A stretch of DNA of 51,367 nt, taken from Chloroflexota bacterium (GTDB lineage Bacteria; Chloroflexota; Anaerolineae; Anaerolineales; Villigracilaceae). Position 1 is the first letter of the stretch. Each line of letters begins with the position of its first letter. Where the stretch lies: positions 1 to 51,367 of the forward strand of contig VGNO01000001.1 of NCBI GenBank assembly GCA_016865985.1, read 5' to 3'. Position numbers and translations under genes: made by a program. The notes under the pieces were generated by a model. That model was not told the origin of the DNA, did no database searches, and worked only from the letters and a program-made list of their open reading frames with translations. Positions 3,943 through 43,878 of the stretch are shown piece after piece.

Positions 3943-5958
3943 ATGTTCAATCGCAGTCCGTCCATTTTGTTGCTCTTCCTATTCATCCTTCCGGCGTGCG
4001 GCAGCCCGGCGCCCCCCACTGGGGAATCCGGCTCCGCTCCCGGCGCCCCGCCGGACAGCCCTGCCGGAACGCAATCCTCCCCGCCCGGCTCCGCAACCAC
4101 AACCATCCCTTCCAGTTCCCCAACCGGGACGGCCACTTCGACCCCTGAACCATCCCCTGTTCCCCTGTTGCGCACCATCCGGACGGACGGGCGGGCCGTC
4201 AACGGGCTGGCCTGGTCGCCGGATGGCAGCCTGCTGGCCGGCGCGCTGGCCGATGGCACGATCCTTGTCTGGGAAGCCTCCAGCGGGGAACAAGGGCTGT
4301 CCATTGATGCAAGTTATTCATTGAGCAGTGTGGCCTGGTCGCCGGACGGCAGGTACCTGGCCGCCGGTTACCTGGACGGGAACGGCAGCCTCTACGATGC
4401 CGCCAGCGGCGAACGCATCCACATGCTCTTCTCCCAGGATACCGGTTACGCCAGCGCCGCAGCCTGGTCGCCGAACGGCGGCAGCCTGGCGCTCGGCGGT
4501 TACGGGGTTGCGCTCTTCAACCCAGCCAACGGCGGCGCCGTCCGGACCCTGGAGCGGTATGAATCCACCTTATACGGGACGAGCGATTGGGCCACCCAAA
4601 CCTACGGCCTGGCCTTCTCCCCCGGCGGAAGCCTGCTGGCAGTAACCAGCCGGGACAACAAGGTCAGGATGATCGACATCTGGAACCCGTCCAGCGGCGC
4701 CTTCCTGGACGATGTGAGAAGCCTGAAGAACGGCTCCTGCGAAACCGTGGATGACCTGGCCTGGTCGCCGGATGGCGGGACACTGGCTGCCAGCCTCGGC
4801 AGCGGTACTATTTCCCTCCTGTCCACTTCCACCTGGACGGTGACGGTCAAGATCGATGCCACCAAGGATTGCATCAATGGCCTGGCCTGGTCGCCGGACA
4901 GCGCCATCCTGGCCGGCGCAGTCTATTTCGACGGGGTCCATTTCTGGAACGCCTATAGCGGCGATGAACTGCTCGAAATGGAAACCAATCTCGGGATCAT
5001 CAACGCCCTCGAATGGTCGCCGGACGGGGACCTGCTGGCCGCCAGCTGGGAGGACGGCGTCGTGACGCTCTGGGATGTAACCAATGTTGCGCAGTTACTG
5101 GTCGTCCCCACGCCCACCGCCACAACCGCGCGCACGCCAACGCCCCCGCCGCCGGTCGCAGCCGGGAGTGTAATGTGGTCCACGCTCGACCAACGCCCGC
5201 TGGTCTACGTCCCAGGCGGGACCTTCCTGATGGGCGCCGCCGCCACCGACCCGGATGCCGACCCGGATGAACATCCCCGGCACGAGGTCCTGCTGGACGC
5301 CTTCTGGATCGACCAGTACGAAGTGACCCATGAGGCCTATACCCTGTGCGTCGAGGCCGGCGCTTGCAATCCGCCGGCTGAAGCGGACGATAACGGGTTC
5401 CTGTATGAGTACGCGGCCGAGATCAGGGATGGCCCGGTGGTCAACGTCACCTGGAGCGACGCTCAGGCATACTGCGCCTGGGCCGGCCGCCGCCTGCCGT
5501 CCGAAGCCGAATGGGAAAAGGCCGCCCGCGGCGGCGATGGGCGCATCTATCCCTGGGGCGATGACCCGGACGCCTTCCACAAGGCCTGGTACTGCGAAGG
5601 CTGCATCTACGATCCCGACCACCCGGATGTGCTGGACGATTTCTCCCGCCCGGCAGCGGTGGGCAGTTTCCCGGATGGCGCCAGTCCCTACGGCGCGCTG
5701 GATATGGCCGGGAATGTCTGGGAATGGGTGGCGGACTGGTACAGTAAAACGACCTACAGCCAGCCGGCGCTGGTCAACCCGCCCGGCCCTGCCAACGGCT
5801 CCTACCGGGTGATGCGCGGCGGCGGTTGGACCTCGCCCGCCATCGACCTGCGCCTCACCTACCGCCAGGCCTACGTCCCGTTCAGCGCCTGGATCGATGT
5901 GGGTTTCCGCTGCGCCATGGACGACGACCGGACGCTGCTGACAGGGATGAAACCATGA
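3943..5958 (+). CDS. Lipoprotein with WD40 beta-propeller repeats fused to an FGE-sulfatase (SUMF1/EgtB/PvdO) domain
   Basis: AGGAGG RBS and lipobox LPAC. Repeated (L)AWSPDG..LA units. C-terminal FGE-type motifs: HEVLLDAFWIDQYEVT, RLPSEAEWEKAARG, GNVWEWVADW, RGGGW, GFRC. Confidence 0.85.
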   Translation: MFNRSPSILLLFLFILPACGSPAPPTGESGSAPGAPPDSPAGTQSSPPGSATTTIPSSSPTGTATSTPEPSPVPLLRTIRTDGRAVNGLAWSPDGSLLAGALADGTILVWEASSGEQGLSIDASYSLSSVAWSPDGRYLAAGYLDGNGSLYDAASGERIHMLFSQDTGYASAAAWSPNGGSLALGGYGVALFNPANGGAVRTLERYESTLYGTSDWATQTYGLAFSPGGSLLAVTSRDNKVRMIDIWNPSSGAFLDDVRSLKNGSCETVDDLAWSPDGGTLAASLGSGTISLLSTSTWTVTVKIDATKDCINGLAWSPDSAILAGAVYFDGVHFWNAYSGDELLEMETNLGIINALEWSPDGDLLAASWEDGVVTLWDVTNVAQLLVVPTPTATTARTPTPPPPVAAGSVMWSTLDQRPLVYVPGGTFLMGAAATDPDADPDEHPRHEVLLDAFWIDQYEVTHEAYTLCVEAGACNPPAEADDNGFLYEYAAEIRDGPVVNVTWSDAQAYCAWAGRRLPSEAEWEKAARGGDGRIYPWGDDPDAFHKAWYCEGCIYDPDHPDVLDDFSRPAAVGSFPDGASPYGALDMAGNVWEWVADWYSKTTYSQPALVNPPGPANGSYRVMRGGGWTSPAIDLRLTYRQAYVPFSAWIDVGFRCAMDDDRTLLTGMKP

Positions 5959-7747: not shown

Positions 7748-8485
7748 ATGAACGAAACAACCCCGCCCATCACCAAGAACAACTCACCCCTGATCTACTT
7801 CATCCTGCTCATGATCGCCATGCCCATCTTCTTCGGGCTGGGGATGGGGACAGGCTATTTCATCTGGGGGAAGGATGTGGATACCCCAGCCGCGGCGCAG
7901 GCCGGCCCGACCGCGCTTGCCGTCACGCCCACCGTGGCCGTCCCGCAGCAGGCCACCCGTTACGATGTGCCGGTGGATGACGACCCGTCCATCGGGCCGG
8001 AGGACGCCCCGATCACCATCATCGAATTCAGCGATTACCAGTGCCCCTACTGCCAGAAATGGCATGTCGAAACATTCGAGCAGTTGATGGCAAACTACCC
8101 GGGGCAGATCCGCCTGGTGTATCGCGACTTCCCGCTCAACGGCCACCCGGAGGCCATCCCGGCCGCGGTGGCCGCCAACTGCGCCGGCGAGCAGGGACAA
8201 TACTGGGAATACCACAACGCCCTCTTCACATACGAATACGAATTGGGCAGCGAAGGTTACAACCAGTACGCCGCCGACCTGGGGCTGGATACTGAAGCCT
8301 TCCGCCTGTGCATCGAGGAGAACCGCTATTACGACGAGGTGATGGCCGACCTGCAATACGCCACCCAGATCGGTGTGCGCGCTACGCCCACATTCTTCAT
8401 CAACGGCATCCCGGTCGAGGGCGCTTATCCGTTCGCATATTTCCAGCAGATCATCGACCTGGAACTGGCCGGGGATCTCGATTGA
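7748..8485 (+). CDS. DsbA-family thiol:disulfide oxidoreductase (membrane-anchored thioredoxin fold)
   Basis: N-terminal TM helix, CPYC active site within FSDYQCPYCQKWH, and C-terminal (V)RATPTFFING motif. Confidence 0.85.
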   Translation: MNETTPPITKNNSPLIYFILLMIAMPIFFGLGMGTGYFIWGKDVDTPAAAQAGPTALAVTPTVAVPQQATRYDVPVDDDPSIGPEDAPITIIEFSDYQCPYCQKWHVETFEQLMANYPGQIRLVYRDFPLNGHPEAIPAAVAANCAGEQGQYWEYHNALFTYEYELGSEGYNQYAADLGLDTEAFRLCIEENRYYDEVMADLQYATQIGVRATPTFFINGIPVEGAYPFAYFQQIIDLELAGDLD

Positions 8486-8517
8486 TCGGCGCGGCTCCGG
8501 CCGCGCAGGAGGAGATC

Positions 8518-9183
8518 ATGAAAAAATTCATTGCGGTTGCCGGGAACATCGGCGTCGGGAAATCGACGCTGGTGGAAATGTTATGCGCCCGGCTGGGCTG
8601 GACGCCCTTCTTCGAACCGGTGGCCGAGAATCCCTACCTGTCGGACTTCTACCGTGACATGGAAGCCTGGGCCTTCCACTCGCAGATCTTCTTCCTGACC
8701 CACCGCCTGCGCGCCCACCACCAACTGGCGCTCCACCCCACCTCGGCCATCCAGGACCGCAGCGTGTACGAGGACGCCGAGATCTTTGCCCACAACCTGT
8801 TCCTGCAGGGACACATCCACCCGCGCGACTACGATACCTACCGCGAACTCTACCTGACCCTGATCGATTTCCTGCCGCCGCCCGACCTGGTGATCTACCT
8901 GCACGCCTCGGTCCCGACCCTGCTGCGGCGCATCGCCAGCCGCGGGCGGGATTACGAACGCTCCATCCCGCCCGACTACCTGAGCAGCCTGAATGCCCTC
9001 TATGAGAACTGGATCTCGAACTTCACCCTCTGCCCGGTGCTGACCGTCCCGGCGGACGATATTGACTATGTTGCCCACACCGGCCACCTGAACCTGATCA
9101 TCTCGAAGGCGGAAGAGAAACTGACCGGCAAGGACGAGGTCGTCTTCTACCCGGAGGAAGTGGCCCTGGCCGCTACGGTATAA
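8518..9183 (+). CDS. Deoxynucleoside kinase (dCK/dGK family), paralog 1
   Basis: AGGAGGAG RBS, P-loop GNIGVGKST, ENPYLSDFY and DRSVYED motifs. The listed ORF start at 8308 was rejected. Confidence 0.85.
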   Translation: MKKFIAVAGNIGVGKSTLVEMLCARLGWTPFFEPVAENPYLSDFYRDMEAWAFHSQIFFLTHRLRAHHQLALHPTSAIQDRSVYEDAEIFAHNLFLQGHIHPRDYDTYRELYLTLIDFLPPPDLVIYLHASVPTLLRRIASRGRDYERSIPPDYLSSLNALYENWISNFTLCPVLTVPADDIDYVAHTGHLNLIISKAEEKLTGKDEVVFYPEEVALAATV

Positions 9184-9203: not shown

Positions 9204-9230
9204 ACGGACGGCTGAAGCCGTCCGTTTTCT
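9204..9230 (+). terminator. Intrinsic terminator-like hairpin between convergent genes
   Basis: ACGGACGGC-TGAA-GCCGTCCGT followed by TTTCT. Confidence 0.6.
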
Positions 9231-11242
9231 TATCGGAACACCACCCCCCACTTGAAGCGCCCTTCCAACCAGAGTTCCGGGTTTTCCGGTCGGACGCCCC
9301 AGCCGGGAGCGTCAGCCTGGCCGCACTCCAGTTTAGCCAGGGGGTCTGGCAGGTAGGGCAGGGCGAGGCAGGCCGGCGCTGGAGCCTGCCCGCCGGGGCC
9401 CTTTCCATCCCCCGCTTCCCCGCCCGTCTCCAGCCGGGAGTTGGGACGTCCCGGGCTGGGGCGGCAGTCGAAGATCCAGCCGCCGCCGTCCGGCAGGCGG
9501 CACCAGGACACATCGGCGCTGGTTGCAACCGGGTAAGTGAAAATGTCGGCGGTGTAACCACCAACCCCGAACAGGCGCACCGTGTCCCCGCCATCGCTCA
9601 ACGAGAGATTGGTCTCGGATGCGTAGAAGACTGCAATCTGGCGCGGCTGGAGGGTGATATCCGGCAGTTTGAAGGCCGCCGAACCGCCTTCATCGTCGTC
9701 GAGTTTCCAGCCTTTCAGGCTGACCGCCGTCGACCCGACATTGATCAACTCGATGAACTCGTCTCCCACGCCGGTGCGCCCGTCGGCATTCCAGTCGCTG
9801 CGCGGGTGGGGCAGGAACTCGTTGATGATGACCGTCACCGTGACCTGGGTCGGGGCCTGGGTGGGGGTCTTCGTCCGGCTGGGCGTGGGAGTGACAGTAC
9901 GGGTCGGCGTGCTGGACGGGGTGGGTGTGACCGCGCCCGGGCAGACCGTCGCCGGGGCAGCGCGGTTCTGCGGGTTGGCCGGTGCGATCTGGCTGAAATC
10001 GGTTCTGTTGTCCCCCGTGTCCTGGCATCCCGCGGACCGGCGTTCGTAACTCTGGTTGGCTACGCCGCTGAGGGGCGGGAGGTTTGTCCCTTCCCGGTAG
10101 AGGGTCGCGGCGCACATGCCGGCCTGGTCCACCACCGCGCTACCGGAAAGGATGGCGATCCCGCCGTCGTCGGAGATGGTGGAGGAGAACGTCTGGTCGG
10201 CCCCGGTCACGCCAGAAGACGAGTTGGCGGCCAGGAAGCGCTGTCCCGGCTGGAGGATGGTGTCGGTGGCAATCGTCAACAGGGTGGAGACCGTCGAGCC
10301 GCAGCCGCTGGACTTCTTGACCTGCCAGCCGCCGATGTTGACCGCCGCCGCGCTGGGGTTGTAGAGTTCGATGAACTCGTCGCTGGAATTATCCGGGAGG
10401 GAGGTGCGGAACTCGCTGATGACGATATGCGCCGGCGGCATCAGGGTGGCGGTGGAGGTGGCGGTCGCGCTGGCGGTGGGACTGGACGTGGGTGTATATG
10501 TGGCGGTGGGCGTATCGGTCGCCGTCCCGGTGGCGGTCGGCGTGCCGGTATCGGTGGGGGTGTTGGTCGCAGTGGGCGTTTCGGTCGGGGTGGCGGTTGC
10601 CGCCCCAAAGCAAGGTGTGTAGGGCGCCGCTGAACTTTGCGGAGCGCTCGATGCAACGAAAACGAAATCCGCTGCATTATCCTGGGTGTCGTAACAACTT
10701 CCTGCCATCCCGCCCGGCAGGCGTTCGTATCCCTGGTTCAAGTTAGCGCCGAGTTCGGGTAAAGGCATCCCTTCGGACGCTCCACTGCTCATACCAACTT
10801 TGTCAACGATCGTGACGCCATCCGCCAGCGTCAGGGCGACGCCGCCGTTATCGGCGATCCCGGCCGATAGATCCCCATCCCGTGGCGTTATTCCGCTGAC
10901 GGTGGTGGCAGCGAGATAATGTTGCCCCGGGTGGAGGGTCACGCCAGGCGGGATGGTGTAGCGAGTGGTCATGCCGCCGGCGCTGCTGACAGACCGGATC
11001 AACATTCCCCCAACGGACAGGTCCTCCCCGGTTGGGTTGAATATTTCCACGAATTCATCCGACCCGAGCCCAACTCCTCGAGCCCGGAATTCACTAATGA
11101 CTACATGGTAAGGGGGAATGGGTGTATTCGCAGCCTGCCCCTGTGGCGCGGCGAGCGCCGCCCCGCCCAGGAGATCGCCAAGCAGGCTGGCGGCGAGCAG
11201 CAGGATCAATACAAGGGCCAAAACTCGGTTCCGTCCACGCAT
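9230..11242 (-). CDS. Secreted protein with three lamin-tail domains (LTD) separated by Pro/Thr linkers
   Basis: Signal peptide. Three repeats of the pattern (V/I)I(S/N)EF...DEF(V/I)E(I/L)(F/Y/I)N. TP-rich linkers. 670 aa. Confidence 0.85.
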   Translation of the reverse strand: MRGRNRVLALVLILLLAASLLGDLLGGAALAAPQGQAANTPIPPYHVVISEFRARGVGLGSDEFVEIFNPTGEDLSVGGMLIRSVSSAGGMTTRYTIPPGVTLHPGQHYLAATTVSGITPRDGDLSAGIADNGGVALTLADGVTIVDKVGMSSGASEGMPLPELGANLNQGYERLPGGMAGSCYDTQDNAADFVFVASSAPQSSAAPYTPCFGAATATPTETPTATNTPTDTGTPTATGTATDTPTATYTPTSSPTASATATSTATLMPPAHIVISEFRTSLPDNSSDEFIELYNPSAAAVNIGGWQVKKSSGCGSTVSTLLTIATDTILQPGQRFLAANSSSGVTGADQTFSSTISDDGGIAILSGSAVVDQAGMCAATLYREGTNLPPLSGVANQSYERRSAGCQDTGDNRTDFSQIAPANPQNRAAPATVCPGAVTPTPSSTPTRTVTPTPSRTKTPTQAPTQVTVTVIINEFLPHPRSDWNADGRTGVGDEFIELINVGSTAVSLKGWKLDDDEGGSAAFKLPDITLQPRQIAVFYASETNLSLSDGGDTVRLFGVGGYTADIFTYPVATSADVSWCRLPDGGGWIFDCRPSPGRPNSRLETGGEAGDGKGPGGQAPAPACLALPYLPDPLAKLECGQADAPGWGVRPENPELWLEGRFKWGVVFR

Positions 11243-11335: not shown

Positions 11336-11596
11336 TTAGCGGGGCGCAACCACCAGTTTGATGGCGGTCCTGACCTTGCCTTCGATCTCCACGTCCACGA
11401 ACTCAGGCACGGCCACCACGTCGATCCCGTCGTTCTTCAGGTAGCCGGTAGCCAGCACCAGCGCTTTGACCGCCTGGTTGACCGCTCCCGCCCCGATCGC
11501 TTGCACGTCCGCCCGTTTGTGTTCACGGACTACGCCCGCGATTGCCCCTGCCACTGCGGAGGTTCGGGAGGTTGCAGAAACCTTGATCGTGTCCAT
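11336..11596 (-). CDS. spoVS: Stage V sporulation protein S (SpoVS) homolog
   Basis: 86 aa. KVSA.S....VAGAIAGV.RE....VQAIGAGAVNQAVKA..LA.GYL pattern typical of SpoVS. Confidence 0.9.
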   Translation of the reverse strand: MDTIKVSATSRTSAVAGAIAGVVREHKRADVQAIGAGAVNQAVKALVLATGYLKNDGIDVVAVPEFVDVEIEGKVRTAIKLVVAPR

Positions 11597-11639
11597 ATTG
11601 GTCTCCCTTGTTAGAAACGGTCCAATGGAACGGGGCTGC

Positions 11640-12091
11640 TTATCTATACAAGAGTTTACAATATATCGAGAGGCGATTCAAGCCGTAAATGGTACTACAG
11701 GAATCAAGTATGTATATATTTATTGATATCTTAGTAGTCGTAGTAGGGGCTGTGGATAGTGTGGAGAAAGCAGTCGCGCGGGTTGATTCGCCGTACATCC
11801 GGCGGCTGCGTCCCGGAGGCCTCCCGTATCTGGCGGATACAGCCGGCGGACCGGAGCGGCTTTCCTGTGGATAAAATCCCTGGAACCGGGGCGGCGGGAT
11901 CCGGCTGGCAGCAGTCCCCCACCCCGGAGGATCCGCTTTTGCCATATATTGGCGGGACGCTTGTTCCCTCCCCAGATATGGGGGTTCCACTCTCCGCCAT
12001 ATTTCGAACAATTGAGCAGTTTATCCACAGAAGGATGGGTTTATCCACAAGAATCTGCGAGTTATCCACAGTTATGGGTCGAAGGCAGGGA
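11640..12091. other. DnaA-box cluster plus AT-rich tract: candidate chromosomal replication origin (oriC)
   Basis: Perfect TTATCCACA at 12021-12029, 12041-12049 and 12062-12070. Perfect TGTGGATAA at 11866-11874. 8/9 boxes at 11751-11759 and 11760-11768. AT-rich tract at about 11641-11745. No credible CDS in the gap. Confidence 0.65.
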
Positions 12092-13120
12092 TTAAGGGAC
12101 CTTCCTGCCATCCCTATATATGGCATCCAACCCGTGCGCGCCGGCCAGGTCTTCGAGCAGGAGGTCCACTTCGTCCATGAATTGATCCAGTTCGGCCAGG
12201 CGGGGGGGCAGACCTTCTGAGTCCAGGGCGAAGAACTTGCAGGCCGCCTGCCACCCTCCCTGTTTCGCCACAGGCAGCGCCATGGCGGACAAGGTCCAGG
12301 TTTGCAGCAGCGGCCACAGGCTGGAACGGGACTGGCCGGCATCGAGCAGGGCTTGCAGGGCCTGCCGGTAATAGCCCAGGCGGGAAGGGTGCAGGCGGGC
12401 GTCGGCGCCCCGCCGGGAGCCGGCAGACAGGAAGGCTTTTTCCCACTGAGCCAGGAAGCCGGTCATGGCGCCGTCGTCGACCGTTTCCGCTCCCAGCATG
12501 CGGAACAGGAGGCCGGTCAGGCCGGGACGGCCGGCGGCCTCAGCGCGGGCCGGGAACTGGAGCAGGAAACGCCGCTCGGCCAGCGCCGTCCCGTTCAGGA
12601 TGGCGACGGCATTGGCGGCATGGCTGACGGCTTTGAAGAAGGCAAGCAACCGGGCTGGACCTTCGTTTGTTTCAGCGGGCAGGCCGGACCAGATCTGGCG
12701 CGCATGTTCCAGGTCCGTGCGGGAACGCTGGAGGCGGTTGAGCGGGTCGTTGAACTTGTCCCGCACCCCGGCCTGGACGAATTCGAAAAAGGACCCGGTC
12801 TCGTGGAGCAACATTGGGTCCCACATCTCCGGTCCCAGCCAGGGATGGAAGCGCACCCGGCGCGGGCTTTCGTAATCGCTGCGCGGGTTGTGCTGGATGT
12901 CTATATGGACTTCGGGGGTGAGCGGGACGATCTCGCGCCGGGCAGGCGGTTGCCGGTCGTGGATGAAGACCAGGTCGATATCGGCTACCCCGCCCAGGAG
13001 GGGGTCGTCGGTCAACAAAGACCCGGTCAGGTAGACGGCCAGGATGCTCTTGTCGCTGTGCGTGCGCTGGGCGGTGGTCTCGCGGGCGATGCGGAGCAGG
13101 GTCTCGCGGGTGATGCGCAC
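12092..13120 (-). CDS. Pol-beta-superfamily nucleotidyltransferase-domain protein, unknown function
   Basis: N-terminal GS...DIDLVF motif (LTGSLLTDDPLLGGVADIDLVFIHD) followed by a helical C-terminal region. 342 aa. Confidence 0.7.
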   Translation of the reverse strand: MRITRETLLRIARETTAQRTHSDKSILAVYLTGSLLTDDPLLGGVADIDLVFIHDRQPPARREIVPLTPEVHIDIQHNPRSDYESPRRVRFHPWLGPEMWDPMLLHETGSFFEFVQAGVRDKFNDPLNRLQRSRTDLEHARQIWSGLPAETNEGPARLLAFFKAVSHAANAVAILNGTALAERRFLLQFPARAEAAGRPGLTGLLFRMLGAETVDDGAMTGFLAQWEKAFLSAGSRRGADARLHPSRLGYYRQALQALLDAGQSRSSLWPLLQTWTLSAMALPVAKQGGWQAACKFFALDSEGLPPRLAELDQFMDEVDLLLEDLAGAHGLDAIYRDGRKVP

Positions 13121-13126
13121 GGCAGC

Positions 13127-13735
13127 CTACTTCCCGCCCAGTGCGGAGCGGATGCGGCCCTCGATCCACTGCCGGTGTTCCAGGTTGCGGACGAAGTCCA
13201 GCGGGTTGGTATCGATCACCAGCACGGGGGTGTCGTCGTAGGGGCGCGAGAAGAATTCATCGTAGGCCTGGTTGAGTTGGGCGATATAACCCTGTTCCAT
13301 GTTGCGTTCGTAGGGACGGTCGCGCATGGCGATGCGCTGCATGAGCGCCCCGGTATCGGCTTTCAGGTAGACCAGCAGGTTGGGCAGGGGGATCTTTTCG
13401 GCCAGCGCCTCGTGCACCCGGCGGTACATTTCGAGTTCATCGCCCTGCAGGTTGATGCCGGCGAAGAGCGAGTCCTTGGCAAAAGTGTAGTCCGAGATCA
13501 GCGGCCGCCCCTGTTCGAGCAGGGCCGGCGCGCTGCGCCGCTGCTGGTGGTAGCGGCTGAGGAGGAAGAAGATCTGGGTCTGGAAGGCGTAGCGCTGGCG
13601 GTCGGAGTAGAAATCGGAGAGGAAGGGGTTCTCCTCGAAGACCTCCAGGAGCAGTTCGGCGTCGAAAGCCGGCTGGAGCAGGCGCGCCAGGGTGGTCTTG
13701 CCCACCCCGATCACACCTTCAATCGCAATGTACAT
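13127..13735 (-). CDS. Deoxynucleoside kinase (dCK/dGK family), paralog 2
   Basis: Start MYIAIEGVIGVGKTT (P-loop), with ENPFLSDFY and ISDYTF motifs. The upstream part of listed ORF 13127..14284 was rejected because it is antisense to the MBL gene. Confidence 0.85.
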   Translation of the reverse strand: MYIAIEGVIGVGKTTLARLLQPAFDAELLLEVFEENPFLSDFYSDRQRYAFQTQIFFLLSRYHQQRRSAPALLEQGRPLISDYTFAKDSLFAGINLQGDELEMYRRVHEALAEKIPLPNLLVYLKADTGALMQRIAMRDRPYERNMEQGYIAQLNQAYDEFFSRPYDDTPVLVIDTNPLDFVRNLEHRQWIEGRIRSALGGK

Positions 13736-13849
13736 GGTCCGCGCTCCCTGGGGAAAGGATGGGTCAAGGATACCATAATCTTTTTCATTCGCTTGACTTT
13801 TGCCTCCGATTTTGCTATGTTTGGAGTACTTTCTGTGGAAGAGGTACTC

Positions 13850-14701
13850 ATGCATCGAGAGCGCGTATCTGAAAATGTCTACTGGTTCCAAAGCGAAGTC
13901 TATGCCCAGGTCACGGCGGGAGTGGTTGCAGGCCCGCAGTGGGCGGTGGTGATCGACACCCTGTCCCTGCCCGAAGAGACCCTGGCGATCCGCGAGTTCG
14001 TCGAACACGAACTGGGGATGGACATCCGCTATGTGATCAACACCCACTACCACGCCGACCATACCTGGGGCAACGGCTTCTTCACCGGCGCGACCATCAT
14101 CTCGCATGCCATGTGCCGCAGCCTGCTGAAAGAACGCGGCCTGCCATCCCTGGAGAATGCCCGCCGCGTGAGCGCAGCCTTCCGCCAGGTCAAGATCGTC
14201 CTGCCGCACCTGACCTTCGAGAGCGGGACGATGACGCTGCGGGTGGGAAAGAAGAACCTGACCATCGCCCCCACCACCGGACACAGCAACGACGGCATCT
14301 CGGTCCTGGTGGACGAGGACCGGGTGCTATTTGCCGGCGACGCCTTCATGCCCCTGCCCTACGTGGTGGATGGCAGCCTGGACGATATCGCCGCCTCCAT
14401 CAAGCGCATCGGAAAGATGGGGTTGGAGAATATCATACAGGGTCACGGCGACATCATCTTGCGGGGGGAGATCGACGCGGCGGTGAAGGAAAACCTCAAC
14501 TACCTGGCAAATATCCGCAAGGCGGCCCGCACCGCCGTCCGGCGTCGGTCGCCGGAGGAGTACCTGGAGGAAATGAGCATCGAGGCCTGCGGCAAGAGCC
14601 GGGTCTACCTGGGCGGGCTGGCGGAGGAACTGCACCGCCGCAACCTGCGCGCCGTCTACCAGCAGGTCAAGAACGGACAGGATACCGGCGGCGAGGAATA
14701 A
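13850..14701 (+). CDS. MBL-fold metallo-hydrolase
   Basis: HYHADH (HxHxDH) motif, later GH and D ligands. Only the C-terminal 283 codons of listed ORF 12302..14701 are credible. An alternative ATG lies at 13817. Confidence 0.8.
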   Translation: MHRERVSENVYWFQSEVYAQVTAGVVAGPQWAVVIDTLSLPEETLAIREFVEHELGMDIRYVINTHYHADHTWGNGFFTGATIISHAMCRSLLKERGLPSLENARRVSAAFRQVKIVLPHLTFESGTMTLRVGKKNLTIAPTTGHSNDGISVLVDEDRVLFAGDAFMPLPYVVDGSLDDIAASIKRIGKMGLENIIQGHGDIILRGEIDAAVKENLNYLANIRKAARTAVRRRSPEEYLEEMSIEACGKSRVYLGGLAEELHRRNLRAVYQQVKNGQDTGGEE

Positions 14702-18268: not shown

Positions 18269-20224
<1,956 letters not shown>

Positions 20225-20254
20225 TTGATTGGCAATGGAAATTCGGTGAATGCA

Positions 20255-20560
20255 ATGCAAAAGAAGAAGTTCCGCATTCCGCGCAAGAAGATCAACGAAT
20301 TTTGCCGCCGCTGGGGAGTGGTGGAACTCTCGTTATTTGGCTCGGTTTTGCGCGCTGATTTTCGTCCCGACAGCGATGTGGACGTGCTGGTCACATTCTC
20401 CAAGGAGGCGCAGATCAGCCTGTTCGATTTGGTGCAAATGAAACTGGACCTGGAGGAAGTCTTCCATCGCCCCGTGGATATCATCGAGAAGGACGCGCTG
20501 GAGAACCCATTCCGCAAGCGGGAAATCCTCAGAACCGCGCAGGTGGTCTATGCTGCCTGA
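20255..20560 (+). CDS. MNT-type nucleotidyltransferase antitoxin (type VII HepT/MNT system)
   Basis: GSVLR.DF...SDVDVLV minimal-NTase motif. ATG at 20255 is preferred over the TTG at 20225. Overlaps the downstream HepT gene by 11 nt. Confidence 0.8.
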
Positions 20561-20891
20561 CGAGAGGAACCTGTCCTATTTGTGGGACATGCGGAAATAC
20601 GCTCTGGAAATCACGGAGATCGCCAAGGGCATATCGCATTCAAAGTTTGTCGAGAACAAAACGATTCGCTATGCCATCGAACGCCTGCTTTTGATCGTTG
20701 GCGAAGCGGCAAATCACATTTCCAGTGAATTCCAGGCTGCGCACCCCGAGATCGAGTGGGCGCAAATCATAGGTTTGCGGAATATTCTGGCGCACGAATA
20801 CGGTGAAATAAAGATGGACAAGGTCTATCTCGCGGCCACGAAGAGCGTCCCGGCATTATTGGAGCGTTTACACCCTCTTCTCCCAGAGTGA
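20550..20891 (+). CDS. HepT-like (DUF86/HEPN) ribonuclease toxin
   Basis: HEPN Rx4H motif in RNILAHEYGEI. 113 aa. Paired with the upstream MNT gene. Confidence 0.85.
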   Translation: MLPDERNLSYLWDMRKYALEITEIAKGISHSKFVENKTIRYAIERLLLIVGEAANHISSEFQAAHPEIEWAQIIGLRNILAHEYGEIKMDKVYLAATKSVPALLERLHPLLPE

Positions 20892-24563: not shown

Positions 24564-25259
24564 TCAGGGAATTCCCAGTTCCTTTTTTTCCAGTTGCATC
24601 CCCTGGTGCTGCATGTAGAGAGCCAGGATCGAGGAGAAAAGCGCCACACATCCCCAGACCATTTCCGCAATCCTGGAGGGATAGATGTAAAGTTGCAGCG
24701 CCCCCCCCAGGCAAAGCAGGGCAAAGAATGCGTACAGGCGGTTGGACGCCTTGAACCTTTTGGTAAATTCCGGCGGGAAGATTTTCCACGCCCCGGAGCG
24801 TTCAAAATGTACCTGCAGCAGGAGGGCGCACAGGATCAGCGCAGCCGTTGCCGCCAGCCAGCCGGACGGGTTGGTGACCAGCAGGCATTGGATGGACTCA
24901 ACTAGCATGGAAAAAAGCACAATGACAGTGGAAACAATAGAAATCGGCCATTTCAAGACAAGGCTCCCCCAGGTAGTTTGCACCCAGGAGTTGGCCAGAA
25001 TCAAAATGGACGTCACGAGAAACATCGTGAGATGCCAGCGGCCTGCCTGGATTTCTGCCAGCAGCGGAGACAACTGGGTCAGCAGGGCGGCCATGGCCAA
25101 CCCGCCCAGCACGGTCCAGAAGTTGACCTGCGCCTCGCGCTGGAAGTAGACGGACTCCTCGCGATGCGTGGCCCACAGGCGGAGGTCGGAGTCCTTCTTT
25201 TTGCTCACCAACCTGGCAGGGGAGTCTTTTATTTTTGGGGTTCCAATGGTTCGCGGCAT
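24564..25259 (-). CDS. Polytopic membrane protein, unknown function (first gene at the left edge of the low-GC island)
   Basis: Charged N-terminal region of about 45 aa, then at least 5 hydrophobic helices. G+C is lower than the neighbouring ATL gene. Confidence 0.65.
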   Translation of the reverse strand: MPRTIGTPKIKDSPARLVSKKKDSDLRLWATHREESVYFQREAQVNFWTVLGGLAMAALLTQLSPLLAEIQAGRWHLTMFLVTSILILANSWVQTTWGSLVLKWPISIVSTVIVLFSMLVESIQCLLVTNPSGWLAATAALILCALLLQVHFERSGAWKIFPPEFTKRFKASNRLYAFFALLCLGGALQLYIYPSRIAEMVWGCVALFSSILALYMQHQGMQLEKKELGIP

Positions 25260-25305
25260 ATTATCCTCGGAGGTAGGGGCGGGGATGAAAATCCCCAGCA
25301 GAACT

Positions 25306-25971
25306 TCAGTTCAGGCTCTTTCGGAGGCCAGACAACATCATCCTTCTTAACCTTTTACTCAACGCAGCCATGAACTCCGCTCTATCGGGAAAACCAGAAT
25401 CGTTACGCAATGCTCGATATATTTCGTTTGCGCTGACAGAAACATAGCGCGTGATTCTTATGGGGACTCGGTTGGTCTCGGCGGTAACATCCTGGAGAGC
25501 AAATCTCACGGCATGTTCTGCCGAAAATCCATCTGGTTTGAAGCCGAAACGTTTGACCATGCTTGCATAGATCGGCTCTGGAATGACCCAATAAGATTTC
25601 ACTCCCCAGGCCTCGTAAACAATTCCCCTGTCAAGTAATTGGCATAGAAATGCTCTGAGTTTCCGTTCATAATCCGCCGAATGCGGGGATGCTGGCTTGG
25701 AAGTATTCCCACCTGTCATAGACTCTTTAGTGGGTAGAAATGCTCTCAACTCAACCGGAACGAAATCGTCAATCTCCCGAGTAAAAGGCTTGTGCCTGGC
25801 AAGTACAAAATCAATTGTTACATAATCGGGCAATTTCACGTTGGAAAATGTTACCAGGTTGGTTGGCTCTCCAAAGTAATTGAGAGCGATGGTTTCCAAT
25901 ACCAAAGGGATACCTTCAACGCTTCCTTCGCCTGCACCGATAAGATCAAAGGCAAATATCTGTGCTGGCAT
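25306..25971 (-). CDS. Hypothetical soluble protein, no recognisable motif (island gene)
   Basis: 221-aa ORF in low-GC DNA with no competing ORF of similar length. Same strand as the R-M genes. Confidence 0.6.
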   Translation of the reverse strand: MPAQIFAFDLIGAGEGSVEGIPLVLETIALNYFGEPTNLVTFSNVKLPDYVTIDFVLARHKPFTREIDDFVPVELRAFLPTKESMTGGNTSKPASPHSADYERKLRAFLCQLLDRGIVYEAWGVKSYWVIPEPIYASMVKRFGFKPDGFSAEHAVRFALQDVTAETNRVPIRITRYVSVSANEIYRALRNDSGFPDRAEFMAALSKRLRRMMLSGLRKSLN

Positions 25972-26112
25972 TTGACTATCACCTAACTATCGCGCTCTGT
26001 CCGTACATGGCAACTTTACCCGAACGAATCTGGCGGACGAGGACCCAGACCTTATGGTCACAGACGTTTGGATCGAGAGGGGATGTAAATTGCACGGGCT
26101 AATCCATTTCGG

Positions 26113-26151
26113 ACAAGAAAACGCCCTGTCAGAAAAGGAGAACAGGCGTTT
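26113..26151 (-). terminator. Terminator-like hairpin after the restriction-enzyme gene
   Basis: On the minus strand: AAACGCCTGT-loop-ACAGGGCGTTT followed by TCTTGTCC. Confidence 0.45.
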
Positions 26152-26169
26152 ACAAGGAAACTGGTTATT

Positions 26170-26883
26170 CTATAGTTCCCAATGAAACTCGTCTGGCAGG
26201 AGAGATATTCGTTGAACGCGCCATTTTGCCTTTTCTTTCAGCCGATGAAAACTCAGGCGAACGCGGAATTCCTCTCCCAAAGTTGGCGCGTTGCGTCCCG
26301 CGATCCAGATCGTATCCTGTGCGTTGGGATTATATTGTTCCTGTAACATCCCATTCGGCACAGCTGCAACCGTTATGATGTGCAATATGTTAATGCCATT
26401 CTTCTCTTCATAGTTGTATTTCACGAACAAAGTCGTTGTCAGATAGGATACGCCTTTGAGTCTGATGATTGTCGGAATCTTGCCCTGTACCTCTACTTCC
26501 TTTCCAAAACGAACTTGCTTCACAATCATAGAAAATTGCGATGTCTGTAAAGTGGCTGTACCTTGTCCGCTAACCTTCTCAGCCTTGGAATCAACGAAAA
26601 GCGCTTGCTTGACTGCGTAATCGGGATGAAAGAGATAACAGGCACGCTTGTAATCAACCTTGCCGAACAAGCGTTGCTCTATTTTTGACATGCCCAATGA
26701 GTCAATCGCTTCTCGCGTGATATCCTCGCCGATGTCTGCTACCAGGTCGCTTTCCTCCTGGAAGATTTCTTGGGCGGCGACTCGGTAATCGTAAATCGCT
26801 TGCGTGACCAATCGTAAGGACACTTTTTCGATTTCTTCCAAACGATCAGGGTTATGACTGAGTTCTTGGGGATTGATAAGCAT
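26170..26883 (-). CDS. Type II restriction endonuclease, SfiI-like (PD-(D/E)xK)
   Basis: HPD...FVDSKAEK fits PD-(D/E)xK. FGKVDYKR, LQTSQFSM, QYNP..D and RLKEKAKWRVQ segments align with my recollection of R.SfiI. ATG at 26883 lies 4 nt after the MTase stop; alternative GTG at 26904. Confidence 0.7.
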   Translation of the reverse strand: MLINPQELSHNPDRLEEIEKVSLRLVTQAIYDYRVAAQEIFQEESDLVADIGEDITREAIDSLGMSKIEQRLFGKVDYKRACYLFHPDYAVKQALFVDSKAEKVSGQGTATLQTSQFSMIVKQVRFGKEVEVQGKIPTIIRLKGVSYLTTTLFVKYNYEEKNGINILHIITVAAVPNGMLQEQYNPNAQDTIWIAGRNAPTLGEEFRVRLSFHRLKEKAKWRVQRISLLPDEFHWEL

Positions 26884-26887
26884 GGGG

Positions 26888-27937
26888 CTACTCTTCCGAA
26901 TCACGTATCAGCCGGATTTGTATTCCGGGTGAAATCCTCGAGCGCGCCAATTGAACGTATTTTTTCTCGAGTTCAATTCCAATGTATCGACGGTCCTCTT
27001 GAATGGCAGCCAGAGCGGTTGTCCCACTGCCCATAAAACAATCGAGCACAACATCGCCTGGTTCTGTCAGCAGACGAATGGTTCGCGAGGGTAATTCCAA
27101 GGGGAACTTAGCCTCATGATCATCATTGGCCCGGACCGACGGGAAGCGCCACACGGCTCTCGACCCCCAGTCTTTCCATTCATCCGAGGATAATCTTCCC
27201 CGGTCGAACTTTGTGATTCCCGGCTTCCAAAAAAAGTACAGATATTCGAATTCATCAATAGCGCGATAAGACAAACTGGCCCAGCGCGAATTCTCCCAAG
27301 CCGCATCCTTTACCCAAACCCGCCTGTCGTAGGGATAGAAGCCAGCTTTTAAGGCCCATTCTTCCACCAAACCGCCAACAATCTTTACTCGCGTTTGTGG
27401 CTCATGCTTTCCACCGCGTATGTTATTACCGTGAAGCCTGCGGTCAATGGTTTGCTCGCTACATCCCAGTAATTTTGCCAGTTGGTAGCGGTTGTAATTG
27501 GGATGTTCCGTCAATGCTCGATGCACGTCCTCTCTTGTTACATGGGAACGCTTTTTATTGACCGCATCAGCCTGGATGCGAGGCATATCCGTATCTTTGA
27601 AGCACAAAATATCGGCGATGTTCACCACGAGGAAGCCGCCGGGCTTGATTAAGGGAAAGTGTAAACCGATAACTTGCTCCAACAAAACCTGCCATGCATC
27701 GAAAGTCAGATAGGCTTCGTAATCTTTGCCAACAAAATAAGGAGGCGACCAAACGCTTAAGGCAATACTGTTCGGTTCGATCTGCGGCAGGAGTTCGCGC
27801 GCGTCACCCTGATAAATCTCATCTGGACTCAAATACTTTGTCCATTTGTTTCCATCAGAATAAAGCAGGCGAAAAGTATCCTGTAATCCCTTTGGTAATC
27901 TTTCAATTTTGAAGTCGGGTAGACTTTGTTCACTCAT
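26888..27937 (-). CDS. Beta-class DNA methyltransferase, SPPY motif (probably N4-cytosine), with internal HTH-like insert
   Basis: Motif IV SVWSPPYFVG is N-terminal to motif I VVLDCFMGSGTTALAA (beta-class order). The segment YQLAKLLGCSEQTIDRRL between them looks like a helix-turn-helix. Confidence 0.85.
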   Translation of the reverse strand: MSEQSLPDFKIERLPKGLQDTFRLLYSDGNKWTKYLSPDEIYQGDARELLPQIEPNSIALSVWSPPYFVGKDYEAYLTFDAWQVLLEQVIGLHFPLIKPGGFLVVNIADILCFKDTDMPRIQADAVNKKRSHVTREDVHRALTEHPNYNRYQLAKLLGCSEQTIDRRLHGNNIRGGKHEPQTRVKIVGGLVEEWALKAGFYPYDRRVWVKDAAWENSRWASLSYRAIDEFEYLYFFWKPGITKFDRGRLSSDEWKDWGSRAVWRFPSVRANDDHEAKFPLELPSRTIRLLTEPGDVVLDCFMGSGTTALAAIQEDRRYIGIELEKKYVQLARSRISPGIQIRLIRDSEE

Positions 27938-28056
27938 AGCAACACCTTGAGATTAAAAAGCGACAACCCAATTATACTATTTGCTGTTTTCGAAAGTTGA
28001 TTCACACGGCTTGGGAGTGGCTAATTCCGTGGGCTTCTTCATTCCTGTTTTTATTT

Positions 28057-35762: not shown

Positions 35763-36380
35763 TTACAGTTTTGGGATATGTTCCAGAAGGAGTGATCCCA
35801 ATTCTTTTTGTACTTCCTCCCATTTGCGTCCCGCGTCCACCAGTACCCACCTCCCCGGCTCCTGCTTGACCATCTCCAGGTATCCGTTCCGCACCCGCTG
35901 GTGGAATTCCACCGTGTAGGCATCCAGCCGGTTCCACTCGTCGGCTTTCTTTTTACGCTTCAGGCCGGTCTCCACATCCACATCCAGCAATATCGTCAGG
36001 TTGGGGACCAGGCTGCCGGTAGCATACTTGATCAGGGCGCGCACCTGCTCCAGGTCCTGCTGGTGGCCGTAACCCTGGTAGGCCAGGGTGGAATCGGCGT
36101 AACGGTCAGACAGCACGATCTCGCCCAGCGCCAGCCGCGGGCGGATGACCTGCTCCACGAACTGCGCCCGCGCCGCCTGGTAGAGCAGGGTCTCGGTGCG
36201 GGCGTGCATCTCGGTGTTCTTCAGGCTGTGCAGCACCTCGCGGATCTGCTCGCCGATGGACGTGCCGCCCGGTTCGCGGGTCGGGAAAACAGTGTACCCC
36301 TTCTCGCGCAGGAATTCCACGAGAGAGGGGATGTGGCTGGTCTTGCCGGAGCCTTCGGGGCCTTCGAAGGTAATGAACAT
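35763..36380 (-). CDS. tmk: dTMP (thymidylate) kinase
   Basis: MFITFEGPEGSGKTS P-loop, REPGGT, DRY.DS..AYQG. Confidence 0.93.
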   Translation of the reverse strand: MFITFEGPEGSGKTSHIPSLVEFLREKGYTVFPTREPGGTSIGEQIREVLHSLKNTEMHARTETLLYQAARAQFVEQVIRPRLALGEIVLSDRYADSTLAYQGYGHQQDLEQVRALIKYATGSLVPNLTILLDVDVETGLKRKKKADEWNRLDAYTVEFHQRVRNGYLEMVKQEPGRWVLVDAGRKWEEVQKELGSLLLEHIPKL

Positions 36381-36461: not shown

Positions 36462-38069
<1,608 letters not shown>

Positions 38070-43150: not shown

Positions 43151-43801
43151 ATGTCCACTCGCATAACACTCACCATTTCTCTCATCCTGATCCTTGCGGC
43201 TTCCCTTGCCGGCCTCTTGCTCTGGGACCGCCTGCCCGACCTCGTGGCTTCCCACTGGAACGAGCACAACCAGGTGGACGGCTACATGTCCAAATTCTGG
43301 GGCGTCTTCCTGATGCCGCTCGTCACGATCGGGATGCTTGCGCTCTTCCTGGTCATCCCGTCCATTGACCCGCTCAAGGCCAACATTGCCCAATTCCGCG
43401 AGGCCTTCAACCTGTTCATCGCGCTGATCATCGCGTTCATGGTTTACATCCATGCGCTGACGCTGGCATGGAACCTGGGATTTCAGGACTTCGAGATGGG
43501 CAGGGCTATGCTCCCGGCCATGGGACTGCTGTTCCTCTTCATCGGCTATCTGCTCCGCAAGGCGAAACGAAACTGGTTCATCGGCATCCGCACGCCCTGG
43601 ACCTTGAGCAGCGACCGCGTCTGGGACCAAACCCACCGCCTCGGCTCGATCCTGTTCCTCGCCTGCGGCCTCCTGACCATCGCCAGCGGTTTCTTCGGCG
43701 GGAGCATCGCCTTCTGGCTGCTCCTCGCGCCGTTGCTCGGTTCGGTCGTTTTCCTCGTGGCCTATTCGTACGTGCTGTACCGCCGCGAAACACGCCCATA
43801 A
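43151..43801 (+). CDS. SdpI-family / DUF1648 membrane protein
   Basis: AGGAGAA RBS. ...SHWN..NQVDGYMSKFWGVF... (DUF1648-like) then NWFIGIRTPWTLSSDRVW (SdpI-like). Confidence 0.8.
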   Translation: MSTRITLTISLILILAASLAGLLLWDRLPDLVASHWNEHNQVDGYMSKFWGVFLMPLVTIGMLALFLVIPSIDPLKANIAQFREAFNLFIALIIAFMVYIHALTLAWNLGFQDFEMGRAMLPAMGLLFLFIGYLLRKAKRNWFIGIRTPWTLSSDRVWDQTHRLGSILFLACGLLTIASGFFGGSIAFWLLLAPLLGSVVFLVAYSYVLYRRETRP

Positions 43802-43878
43802 GTTTCACGTGGAACAGCCGCTGTAGAGGCCGTGGCTGGAAATAGCGCCCTCTTCCCGCCCGATTTTTGGAGGTAAGA

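Follow-up and report, generated by a model that had tools for sequence, protein, structure and literature searches.

The closest described systems to the locus reported here are bacterial chromosomal origins (oriC) that carry a basal unwinding system (BUS), whose definition is based on Bacillus subtilis and has been surveyed across bacteria (PMC8287927, PMC10721633). In the oriC of B. subtilis, the BUS is composed of DnaA-boxes 6 and 7, a GC spacer, the DnaA-trios and an AT-rich tract (PMC6669920, PMC8287927, PMC10721633). The survey gives it as AATAGGTGT TTAGGTGT CCGG GATGATAATGAAGATGAT, with the trios GAT GAT AAT GAA GAT GAT (PMC8287927 Supplementary Table S2), and the entry for Deinococcus (strain DSM 21211) is AATAGGTGT CAAAGGTGT CGGG AATGATAATGAT, at coordinates 1832-1878 (PMC8287927). 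The search rule allows a DnaA box with at most two mismatches, ideally as one of a co-oriented pair, and a spacer of at most 16 bp from the better box to the first trio (mode 13, with a GC-rich gap of about 4 bp), followed by at least three consecutive 3'-NAN-5' triplets, of which 3'-GAT-5' is preferred (PMC8287927). Here we describe a stretch of DNA of 51,367 bp from contig VGNO01000001.1 (the whole of which is called the window), and in particular the 495-bp non-coding gap at 11597-12091, between spoVS and a gene for a nucleotidyltransferase-like protein of 342 amino acids (the 342-aa gene). This gap is very probably the monopartite, DnaA-dependent chromosomal oriC of an Anaerolineales bacterium, adjacent to neither dnaA nor dnaN. 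A candidate oriC away from dnaA had been proposed here in a first-pass annotation, and the proposal is supported by an unwinding module, by the conservation of the module in 59 of 80 relatives, by the occurrence of the same pattern at dnaA-dnaN origins, by a switch in GC skew, and by the lack of dnaA within 10 kb.

The gap contains six DnaA boxes, in a motif order that is kept in 56 aligned relatives. Two of the boxes belong to a module that the first-pass annotation overlooked, consisting of a co-oriented box pair, a 4-bp GC spacer, DnaA-trios and an AT-rich tract, in that order. The − strand reads 5'-TTCTCCACA CTATCCACA GCCC CTA CTA CGA CTA CTA AGATATCAATAAATATATACATAC-3'. The trio-proximal box, CTATCCACA (11751-11759, − strand), and the second box of the pair, TTCTCCACA (11760-11768, − strand), abut each other and have one mismatch each (8/9). 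Most relatives have TATCCACA at the position of the proximal box, and the start-to-start spacing of the pair is conserved at 8-9 bp. The GC-rich spacer (GGGC at 11747-11750; GTCC, GGCC, GGCT and similar in relatives) is read as GCCC on the box strand, and the distance to the trios is 4 bp for the proximal box and 13 bp for the distal one. The DnaA-trio array (11732-11746) is on the + strand, which is the strand complementary to the 5'-TTATCCACA-3' of the adjacent boxes, and reads 3'-GAT GAT GCT GAT GAT-5', with trio 1 (11744-11746) nearest the boxes and AT-rich DNA beyond the array. In the notation of the survey, the window is AAGAGGTGT GATAGGTGT CGGG GATGATGCTGATGAT, that is, CGGG GAT GAT GCT GAT GAT. 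Judged on its sequence, this is how the BUS is arranged in the origins of B. subtilis and Deinococcus.

In the window, all of the first five triplets are exactly GAT apart from the third, GCT, which makes the longest run of trios 2+2. An interruption at this place is seen in most relatives. In 57 of them, read on the box strand, CTA is found at triplets 1 and 2 in 93-95% and at triplet 5 in 79%, NTA is found at triplet 4 in 93%, and the third triplet varies. The third position (11738-11740 in the window) has a central adenine in 18% of these relatives, and the array can be written as GAT GAT NNN NAT GAT. The NAN run has a length of two in 47 of the 57 and of three to five in the other 10. A curated Thermotoga entry in the BUS training table has an array that is likewise interrupted (PMC8287927).

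The AT-rich DNA unwinding element at 11686-11735 is 76% A+T, compared to 38% for the window, and 11693-11737 is the least stable duplex of the entire 51 kb at scales of 30, 45 and 60 bp. The feature is conserved, in that the 45 nt past the trios have a mean of 73% A+T in the 57 relatives against a background of 44%. Duplex stability, base composition and conservation are all therefore as expected for an AT-rich unwinding element beside the boxes of an oriC. When folded as single-stranded DNA, the AT-rich region was no more structured than shuffled sequences (z = −0.07). The AT-rich tract suggested previously was longer, at about 11641-11745. Its 11686-11745 side, which has the least stable duplex, can be retained, while 11640-11685 appears to be better explained as the promoter of spoVS than as an unwinding element. 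The putative promoter (11653-11681, − strand) has a −35 sequence TTGAAT (11681-11676), a 17-nt spacer and a −10 sequence TAAACT (11658-11653), and reads away from the origin. It is proposed on the basis of the consensus and of a conserved cTTGAAt-17-TACAAT in the relatives that carry spoVS; a promoter consensus scan chose a weaker adjacent match rather than TTGAAT/TAAACT.

The remaining four boxes are perfect copies of TTATCCACA, one at 11866-11874 on the − strand and three at 12021-12029, 12041-12049 and 12062-12070 on the + strand. These are the only perfect copies in the window, where 0.18 would be expected, and none of 100 shuffled windows contained four or more. There are 11 sites in the window with at most one mismatch to the box, of which six are inside 320 bp. 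The density of boxes is thus well above chance, as is typical of an oriC, and the first-pass annotation was right both in this and in every one of its box coordinates (four perfect boxes and two abutting 8/9 boxes). The box at 11866-11874 has the same orientation as the box pair, and corresponds to a conserved TTATCCACAGG block in relatives. The three + strand boxes (12021-12070) have the opposite orientation to the other three. Their spacing was given previously as 20-21 bp and was measured as 20 and 21 bp. Most of the 80 relatives have two or three perfect boxes with a 21-bp phase directly past the stop codon of the 342-aa gene, and the triple-box array is likely to be a DnaA-oligomerisation region.

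The gap had been described as having no credible coding sequence, and this is borne out by the complete absence of gene calls in it on the identical public contig (L001) and by conservation that is shaped by motifs. Open reading frames of 102-203 amino acids on both strands overlap the gap. They were rejected as genes, given that none is called on the identical contig and that what is conserved is a set of short, variably spaced motifs and does not follow codons. Rfam and tRNA scans of the window gave no match, so the gap contains no known RNA.

Relatives were collected by an alignment-based scan with homologues of the 342-aa protein, using one genome per bacterial species. The homologues bear Anaerolineales or Anaerolineae names. 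The scan gave 80 loci (L004-L083), nearly all labelled Anaerolineales or Chloroflexota, with 44-60% protein identity to the 342-aa query. The 342-aa gene has a deoxynucleoside kinase gene before it in 79 of the 80, and in the other one (L080) the DNA begins only 124 bp ahead of the 342-aa gene. The module is found directly past the stop of the 342-aa gene in 59 of the 80 species genomes, with the same order of elements, namely two or three phased perfect boxes, a GCTCAATTGTTCGAA block, an opposite perfect box, the box pair, the spacer, CTACTA-NNN-NTACTA and an AT-rich stretch. The module is near 2,136,400 on the 3.24-Mb contig CAWJHP010000001.1 and near 494,400 on the 1.51-Mb contig CAVXCH010000004.1. 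Shuffling of the full 1.3 Mb of loci left a degenerate module pattern with zero or one chance matches.

On the box side of the module, the neighbour is constant: the 342-aa gene adjoins it in all 59 module-bearing genomes, with the kinase gene before it. On the AT-rich side, the neighbour is spoVS in 22 of the 59, a creatininase-family gene in 15, a substrate-binding lipoprotein gene in 12, a small membrane-protein gene in three, a cold-shock gene in one, and other genes in six. The box-side gene always runs toward the module, and in 53 or more of the 59 loci the gene identified on the AT-rich side shares its strand and points away from the module. This geometry of one gene toward and one away is the same as that of dnaA-oriC-dnaN. 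Comparison of the orthologous gap in relatives, which had been suggested as a check, therefore gives a module conserved in 59 of 80 genomes beside a spoVS that is present in only 22 of those 59.

These neighbours bear on the suggestion that the gap is a DnaA-controlled promoter region, which regulates spoVS or terminates or insulates the 342-aa gene. The start of spoVS is 137 bp from the trios, with a plausible sigma-70-type promoter between them, and DnaA is a known transcription factor. However, the AT-rich-side neighbour changes while the module stays unchanged, implying that the module is not a spoVS operator. Moreover, four of the six boxes are 190-470 bp upstream of the promoter, and a promoter role leaves the trios, and the skew switch described below, unexplained. 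We therefore regard it as extremely improbable that the gap is primarily a promoter region. A secondary regulatory effect on the downstream gene is possible.

As a positive control, the pattern TCCAC-N3-4-TCCACA-N4-CTACTA, which is blind to neighbouring genes, was scanned in a public metagenome collection. It was found in at least 119 metagenome stretches. Among the matches listed, 77 are at dnaA and/or dnaN, 10 have 342-aa-gene/spoVS surroundings, and the stretch available for the other 32 lacks any marker gene. The arrangement is exactly dnaA-[pattern]-dnaN in 55 of the 77, with 100-450 bp between the end of dnaA and the pattern and 50-350 bp between the pattern and the start of dnaN. The GC content of the dnaA/dnaN control loci ranges from 24 to 71%. 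Given that the pattern is at dnaA/dnaN in 77 of the matches listed, it is a specific marker of chromosomal origins.

The first-pass annotation had found neither dnaA nor dnaN in the window, and searches using Pfam on all main open reading frames and tblastn agree. The DnaA probe was a B. subtilis sequence, which was validated by its finding dnaA in 62 control loci; in tblastn it had no match in the window, nor within 10 kb of the module in the loci of the 80 relatives. The canonical dnaA-oriC-dnaN arrangement, which is common but not defining for an oriC, is thus absent here. In nine relatives, a Pfam-confirmed dnaN is found 3-9 kb from the module, on either side, with no dnaA beside it (L042:13982-15109, L044:7418-8545, L077:4130-5254, L054, L031, L034, L047, L062 and L078), and dnaA and dnaN are therefore unlinked in these genomes. 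The proximity of dnaN in these relatives, and of gyrB 6 kb away in the window, also speaks for an origin here. A chloroflexal dnaA-[module]-dnaN bridge was also sought: among the metagenome matches listed, no DnaN is more than 42% identical to the Anaerolineales DnaN, except at locus L158, which is an Anaerolineales-type locus and has no dnaA.

Replication polarity was assessed across the relatives, using a sign-flip test, because the cumulative GC skew of the window follows gene orientation. The coding-strand GC skew of + and − genes was compared on each side of the module, for genes more than 2.6 kb from it in relatives within ±10 kb. The difference, (+) minus (−), is −0.035 on the 342-aa-gene side (p = 5e-4) and +0.036 on the other side (p = 6e-4). 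Between the two flanks there is a difference of 0.034 in top-strand skew, on which 30 of 36 loci agree (Wilcoxon p = 4e-4). In a regression, the side has an effect of 0.017 (t = 4.0) and gene orientation has none. When genes are grouped into 264 families, of which 10 are found in both orientations, the differences are −0.032 (p = 0.005) and +0.044 (p = 0.003), and leading differs from lagging with p = 6e-5. The polarity is that of an origin, with a G-rich leading strand, and not that of a terminus. The switch in GC skew that is expected of an oriC is thus present in aggregate over the relatives within ±10 kb.

We considered whether the locus could be a non-origin cluster that titrates or recycles DnaA, as do datA, DARS and the DnaA-box clusters of B. 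subtilis, with the true oriC elsewhere, for example beside dnaA. Dense high-affinity boxes away from dnaA are the typical look of such loci, and the Anaerolinea thermophila UNI-1 origin in DoriC 6.5 (ORI94030346) is at the start of its record, at about 420-460, in a different context (PMC8287927). However, the module of that database origin is weak: its box, AAAAGGGGT, has two mismatches, its spacer is 16 bp, and it scores 7, compared to 24-25 for Deinococcus and B. subtilis (PMC8287927). At the present locus the full unwinding module is found, conserved in register, its pattern elsewhere marks dnaA-dnaN origins, and the GC skew switches here in the relatives. A non-origin cluster is defined by having no unwinding module and by lying off the polarity switch, and 11597-12091 differs from this in both respects. 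To our knowledge, no titration or reactivation locus combines a box pair, spacer, trios and AT-rich tract into an unwinding module, and none is at a skew switch. Such a cluster is therefore an improbable explanation. DnaA titration and a DnaA-regulated spoVS promoter were the two alternatives offered with the original proposal, and each line of evidence gathered here favours an oriC over both.

Several observations weigh against identification of the gap as oriC. Neither the window nor 47 of the 57 relatives satisfy the published requirement for three NAN triplets in a row. Within the window itself, skew follows the orientation of nearby genes and carries no information past 14 kb, and the relatives are phylogenetically related and partly syntenic, so that the p-values for skew overstate their independence. 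Genes on the spoVS side are not co-oriented with the outgoing fork. This had been raised as a caveat for the genes to the left, and is correct, in that 37% of coding bases are co-oriented on this side and 76% on the 342-aa-gene side; the caveat is answered by the skew switch. The dnaA locus is outside all of the DNA examined, both window and relatives, and a competing cluster there is possible. Finally, about 19 related genomes have the 342-aa gene and no module, implying that the position of the origin relative to this gene has changed within the order. In these, other genes come directly after the 342-aa gene, and no module is present within 10 kb (L045, L046, L048, L049, L051, L052, L055, L058, L059, L061, L063-L066, L071, L072, L074, L082 and L083). 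The module-free sub-clade includes Candidatus Villigracilis, and has 44-47% identity to the 342-aa query.

The module-free genomes are also relevant to a further explanation, that the locus is either a remnant, no longer active, of an ancestral dnaA-oriC-dnaN region or the partner of a second origin, with initiation mainly elsewhere. A shift of origin position within the order would fit with this, as would the dnaN and gyrB genes that are still nearby in some genomes. On the other hand, the boxes, their phase and the trios are kept across species in which the neighbouring protein has diverged to 44-60% identity, which implies ongoing selection, and the skew switch indicates current or recent use. 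A second or relict origin is therefore very unlikely, and we retain the identification of the gap as the probable oriC.

On the B. subtilis model, DnaA would be expected to bind to all six boxes. An oligomer of DnaA-ATP could nucleate at the middle box (11866) together with the three distal boxes in phase (12021-12070), and the pair at 11751-11768 would then steer it across the 4-bp GC spacer and onto the + strand trios at 11732-11746. The adjoining AT-rich element, at approximately 11686-11735, would be stretched and opened, and the helicase loaded there, with the opening predicted to fall within 11686-11746.

The relatives have additional conserved elements. A palindrome of the type CC(A/T)6GG, typically CCCCCATATATGGGGG, occurs at about four fixed positions between the DnaA boxes (e.g., L015:11000-11330). 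Its density in relatives is 1.29/kb inside oriC segments and 0.032/kb outside, a 40-fold difference, and no such palindromes were found in the BUS origins of the other bacteria compared. The best copy in the window is CCCCAGATATGGGGG at 11966-11986, and there are weaker, degenerate copies at 11823-11833, 11941-11953 and 12113-12123. A second element is the block TTCGAACAATTGAGCA (GCTCAATTGTTCGAA on the other strand) at 12003-12018, which adjoins the three phased boxes. It is kept in most relatives, its columns in the 56-sequence alignment are more than 75% conserved, and it occurs once in the window. The gene context, the non-consensus third triplet and the CC(A/T)6GG palindromes are lineage-specific features. 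We tentatively suggest that the Anaerolineales oriC could be a distinct variant with a second, lineage-specific layer of control, in which the palindromes (CCCCCATATATGGGGG) and the CAATTGTTCGAA block are sites for an origin-binding regulator or cruciform elements, and the break at trio 3 (GAT GAT NNN NAT GAT) reflects a different register of the DnaA filament. If this is true, current origin databases may mislocate origins in this class.

Coordinates of the flanking genes agree with what had been reported, namely spoVS and a nucleotidyltransferase gene as neighbours and gyrB about 6 kb away. The spoVS gene, the variable neighbour on the AT-rich side, is at 11336-11596 on the − strand (Pfam PF04232, E = 4.9e-34). 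The constant neighbour on the box side, the 342-aa gene, is at 12092-13120 on the − strand. Its protein has no match in Pfam or NCBIfam, and has an invariant GS...DxD signature and a weak match in the PDB to 2rff, a putative nucleotidyltransferase. The gyrB gene is at 18314-20224, 6.2 kb from the gap, and directly past it (20225-20891) is a toxin-antitoxin pair of nucleotidyltransferase/HepT-like type, the start of which overlaps the end of gyrB. Deoxynucleoside kinase genes are present on both sides of the origin, at 8308-9183 (+) and 13127-14284 (−), and there is a thymidylate kinase gene at 35763-36380 (−), 24 kb away. The pair formed by the kinase gene and the 342-aa gene is kept in essentially all 80 relatives, with or without the origin module.

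Two unusual large proteins are encoded near the origin, at 3943-5958 and 9230-11242. One has a WD40 β-propeller fused to a domain resembling formylglycine-generating enzyme, and the other is of 670 amino acids with three lamin-tail domains, and follows spoVS in many relatives also. Further away, a 535-residue protein (36462-38069, −) combines a SpoIIIAA-like ATPase region, a phosphotyrosine-phosphatase-like domain and an R3H nucleic-acid-binding domain. An island of low GC content (25000-28000; 47-49% compared to 62% for the window) has genes for an SfiI-like restriction endonuclease (26170-26904, −) and an N4/N6 DNA methylase (26888-27937, −), and was probably acquired horizontally. A parS-like site, AGTTTCACGTGGAACA, is found at 43801-43816, 32 kb from the origin. 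It matches the consensus TGTTTCACGTGAAACA at 14 of 16 positions, which is weak by itself, since seven of 100 shuffles have at least one such match.

Sediments, soils and wastewater sludge are rich in Anaerolineales, which grow slowly and are for the most part uncultured. An origin that is defined by sequence provides a reference point for estimating growth rates from metagenome coverage (the peak-to-trough ratio), helps in orienting and closing assemblies, and can correct origin calls in databases. We found no description of an Anaerolineae origin in the literature, and ORI94030346 from A. thermophila is the sole prediction for the class that we found; it has no resemblance to the module in the window. 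The Chloroflexi entries that were looked up (Dehalococcoides, Roseiflexus, Anaerolinea, Caldilinea and Thermomicrobium) have scores of 4-10, compared to 24-25 for B. subtilis and Deinococcus (PMC8287927 Supplementary Table S2). Some of the database origins for Chloroflexi may thus be misplaced.

The locus resembles the origin of B. subtilis in having two co-oriented boxes at a spacing of 8-9 bp, a GC spacer of 4 bp, trios of 3'-GAT-5' on the complement of 5'-TTATCCACA-3', and AT-rich DNA beyond the trios. It differs in that the window and most relatives lack the central adenine in the third triplet, and in that the lineage has extra palindromes. In addition, the B. subtilis origin is bipartite around dnaA and beside dnaN, whereas the origin in the window is monopartite and adjacent to neither. 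The Deinococcus entry also has a CGGG spacer, and its box pair and trio layout are almost identical, except that the Deinococcus trio run is uninterrupted. The DSM 21211 entry is near the start of its record, as is that of B. subtilis, and presumably represents the usual dnaA-dnaN gap. The box-spacer-trio module, in a form near to that of B. subtilis, is thereby extended to a deep-branching phylum and to a locus without dnaA or dnaN beside it, which supports the view that the module, and not the gene neighbourhood, is the conserved core of bacterial origins.

With datA, DARS and the DnaA-box clusters of B. subtilis, the locus shares consensus boxes away from dnaA; its trio array, unwinding element and skew switch set it apart from those loci as we know them. 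Origins apart from dnaA include E. coli oriC (mnmG/gidA-mioC), Cori of Caulobacter, the oriC of Thermotoga maritima, and the cyanobacterial origins beside dnaN. All of these are similar to the present locus in being DnaA-dependent with the initiator gene elsewhere. Their flanks differ from those in the window, where the kinase and nucleotidyltransferase-like genes form one flank and a variable gene the other, and the Thermotoga box is a 12-mer, in contrast to the plain E. coli consensus box of the window. An oriC detached from dnaA is thus already known elsewhere, and the present locus is very probably a further example, in an unstudied lineage.

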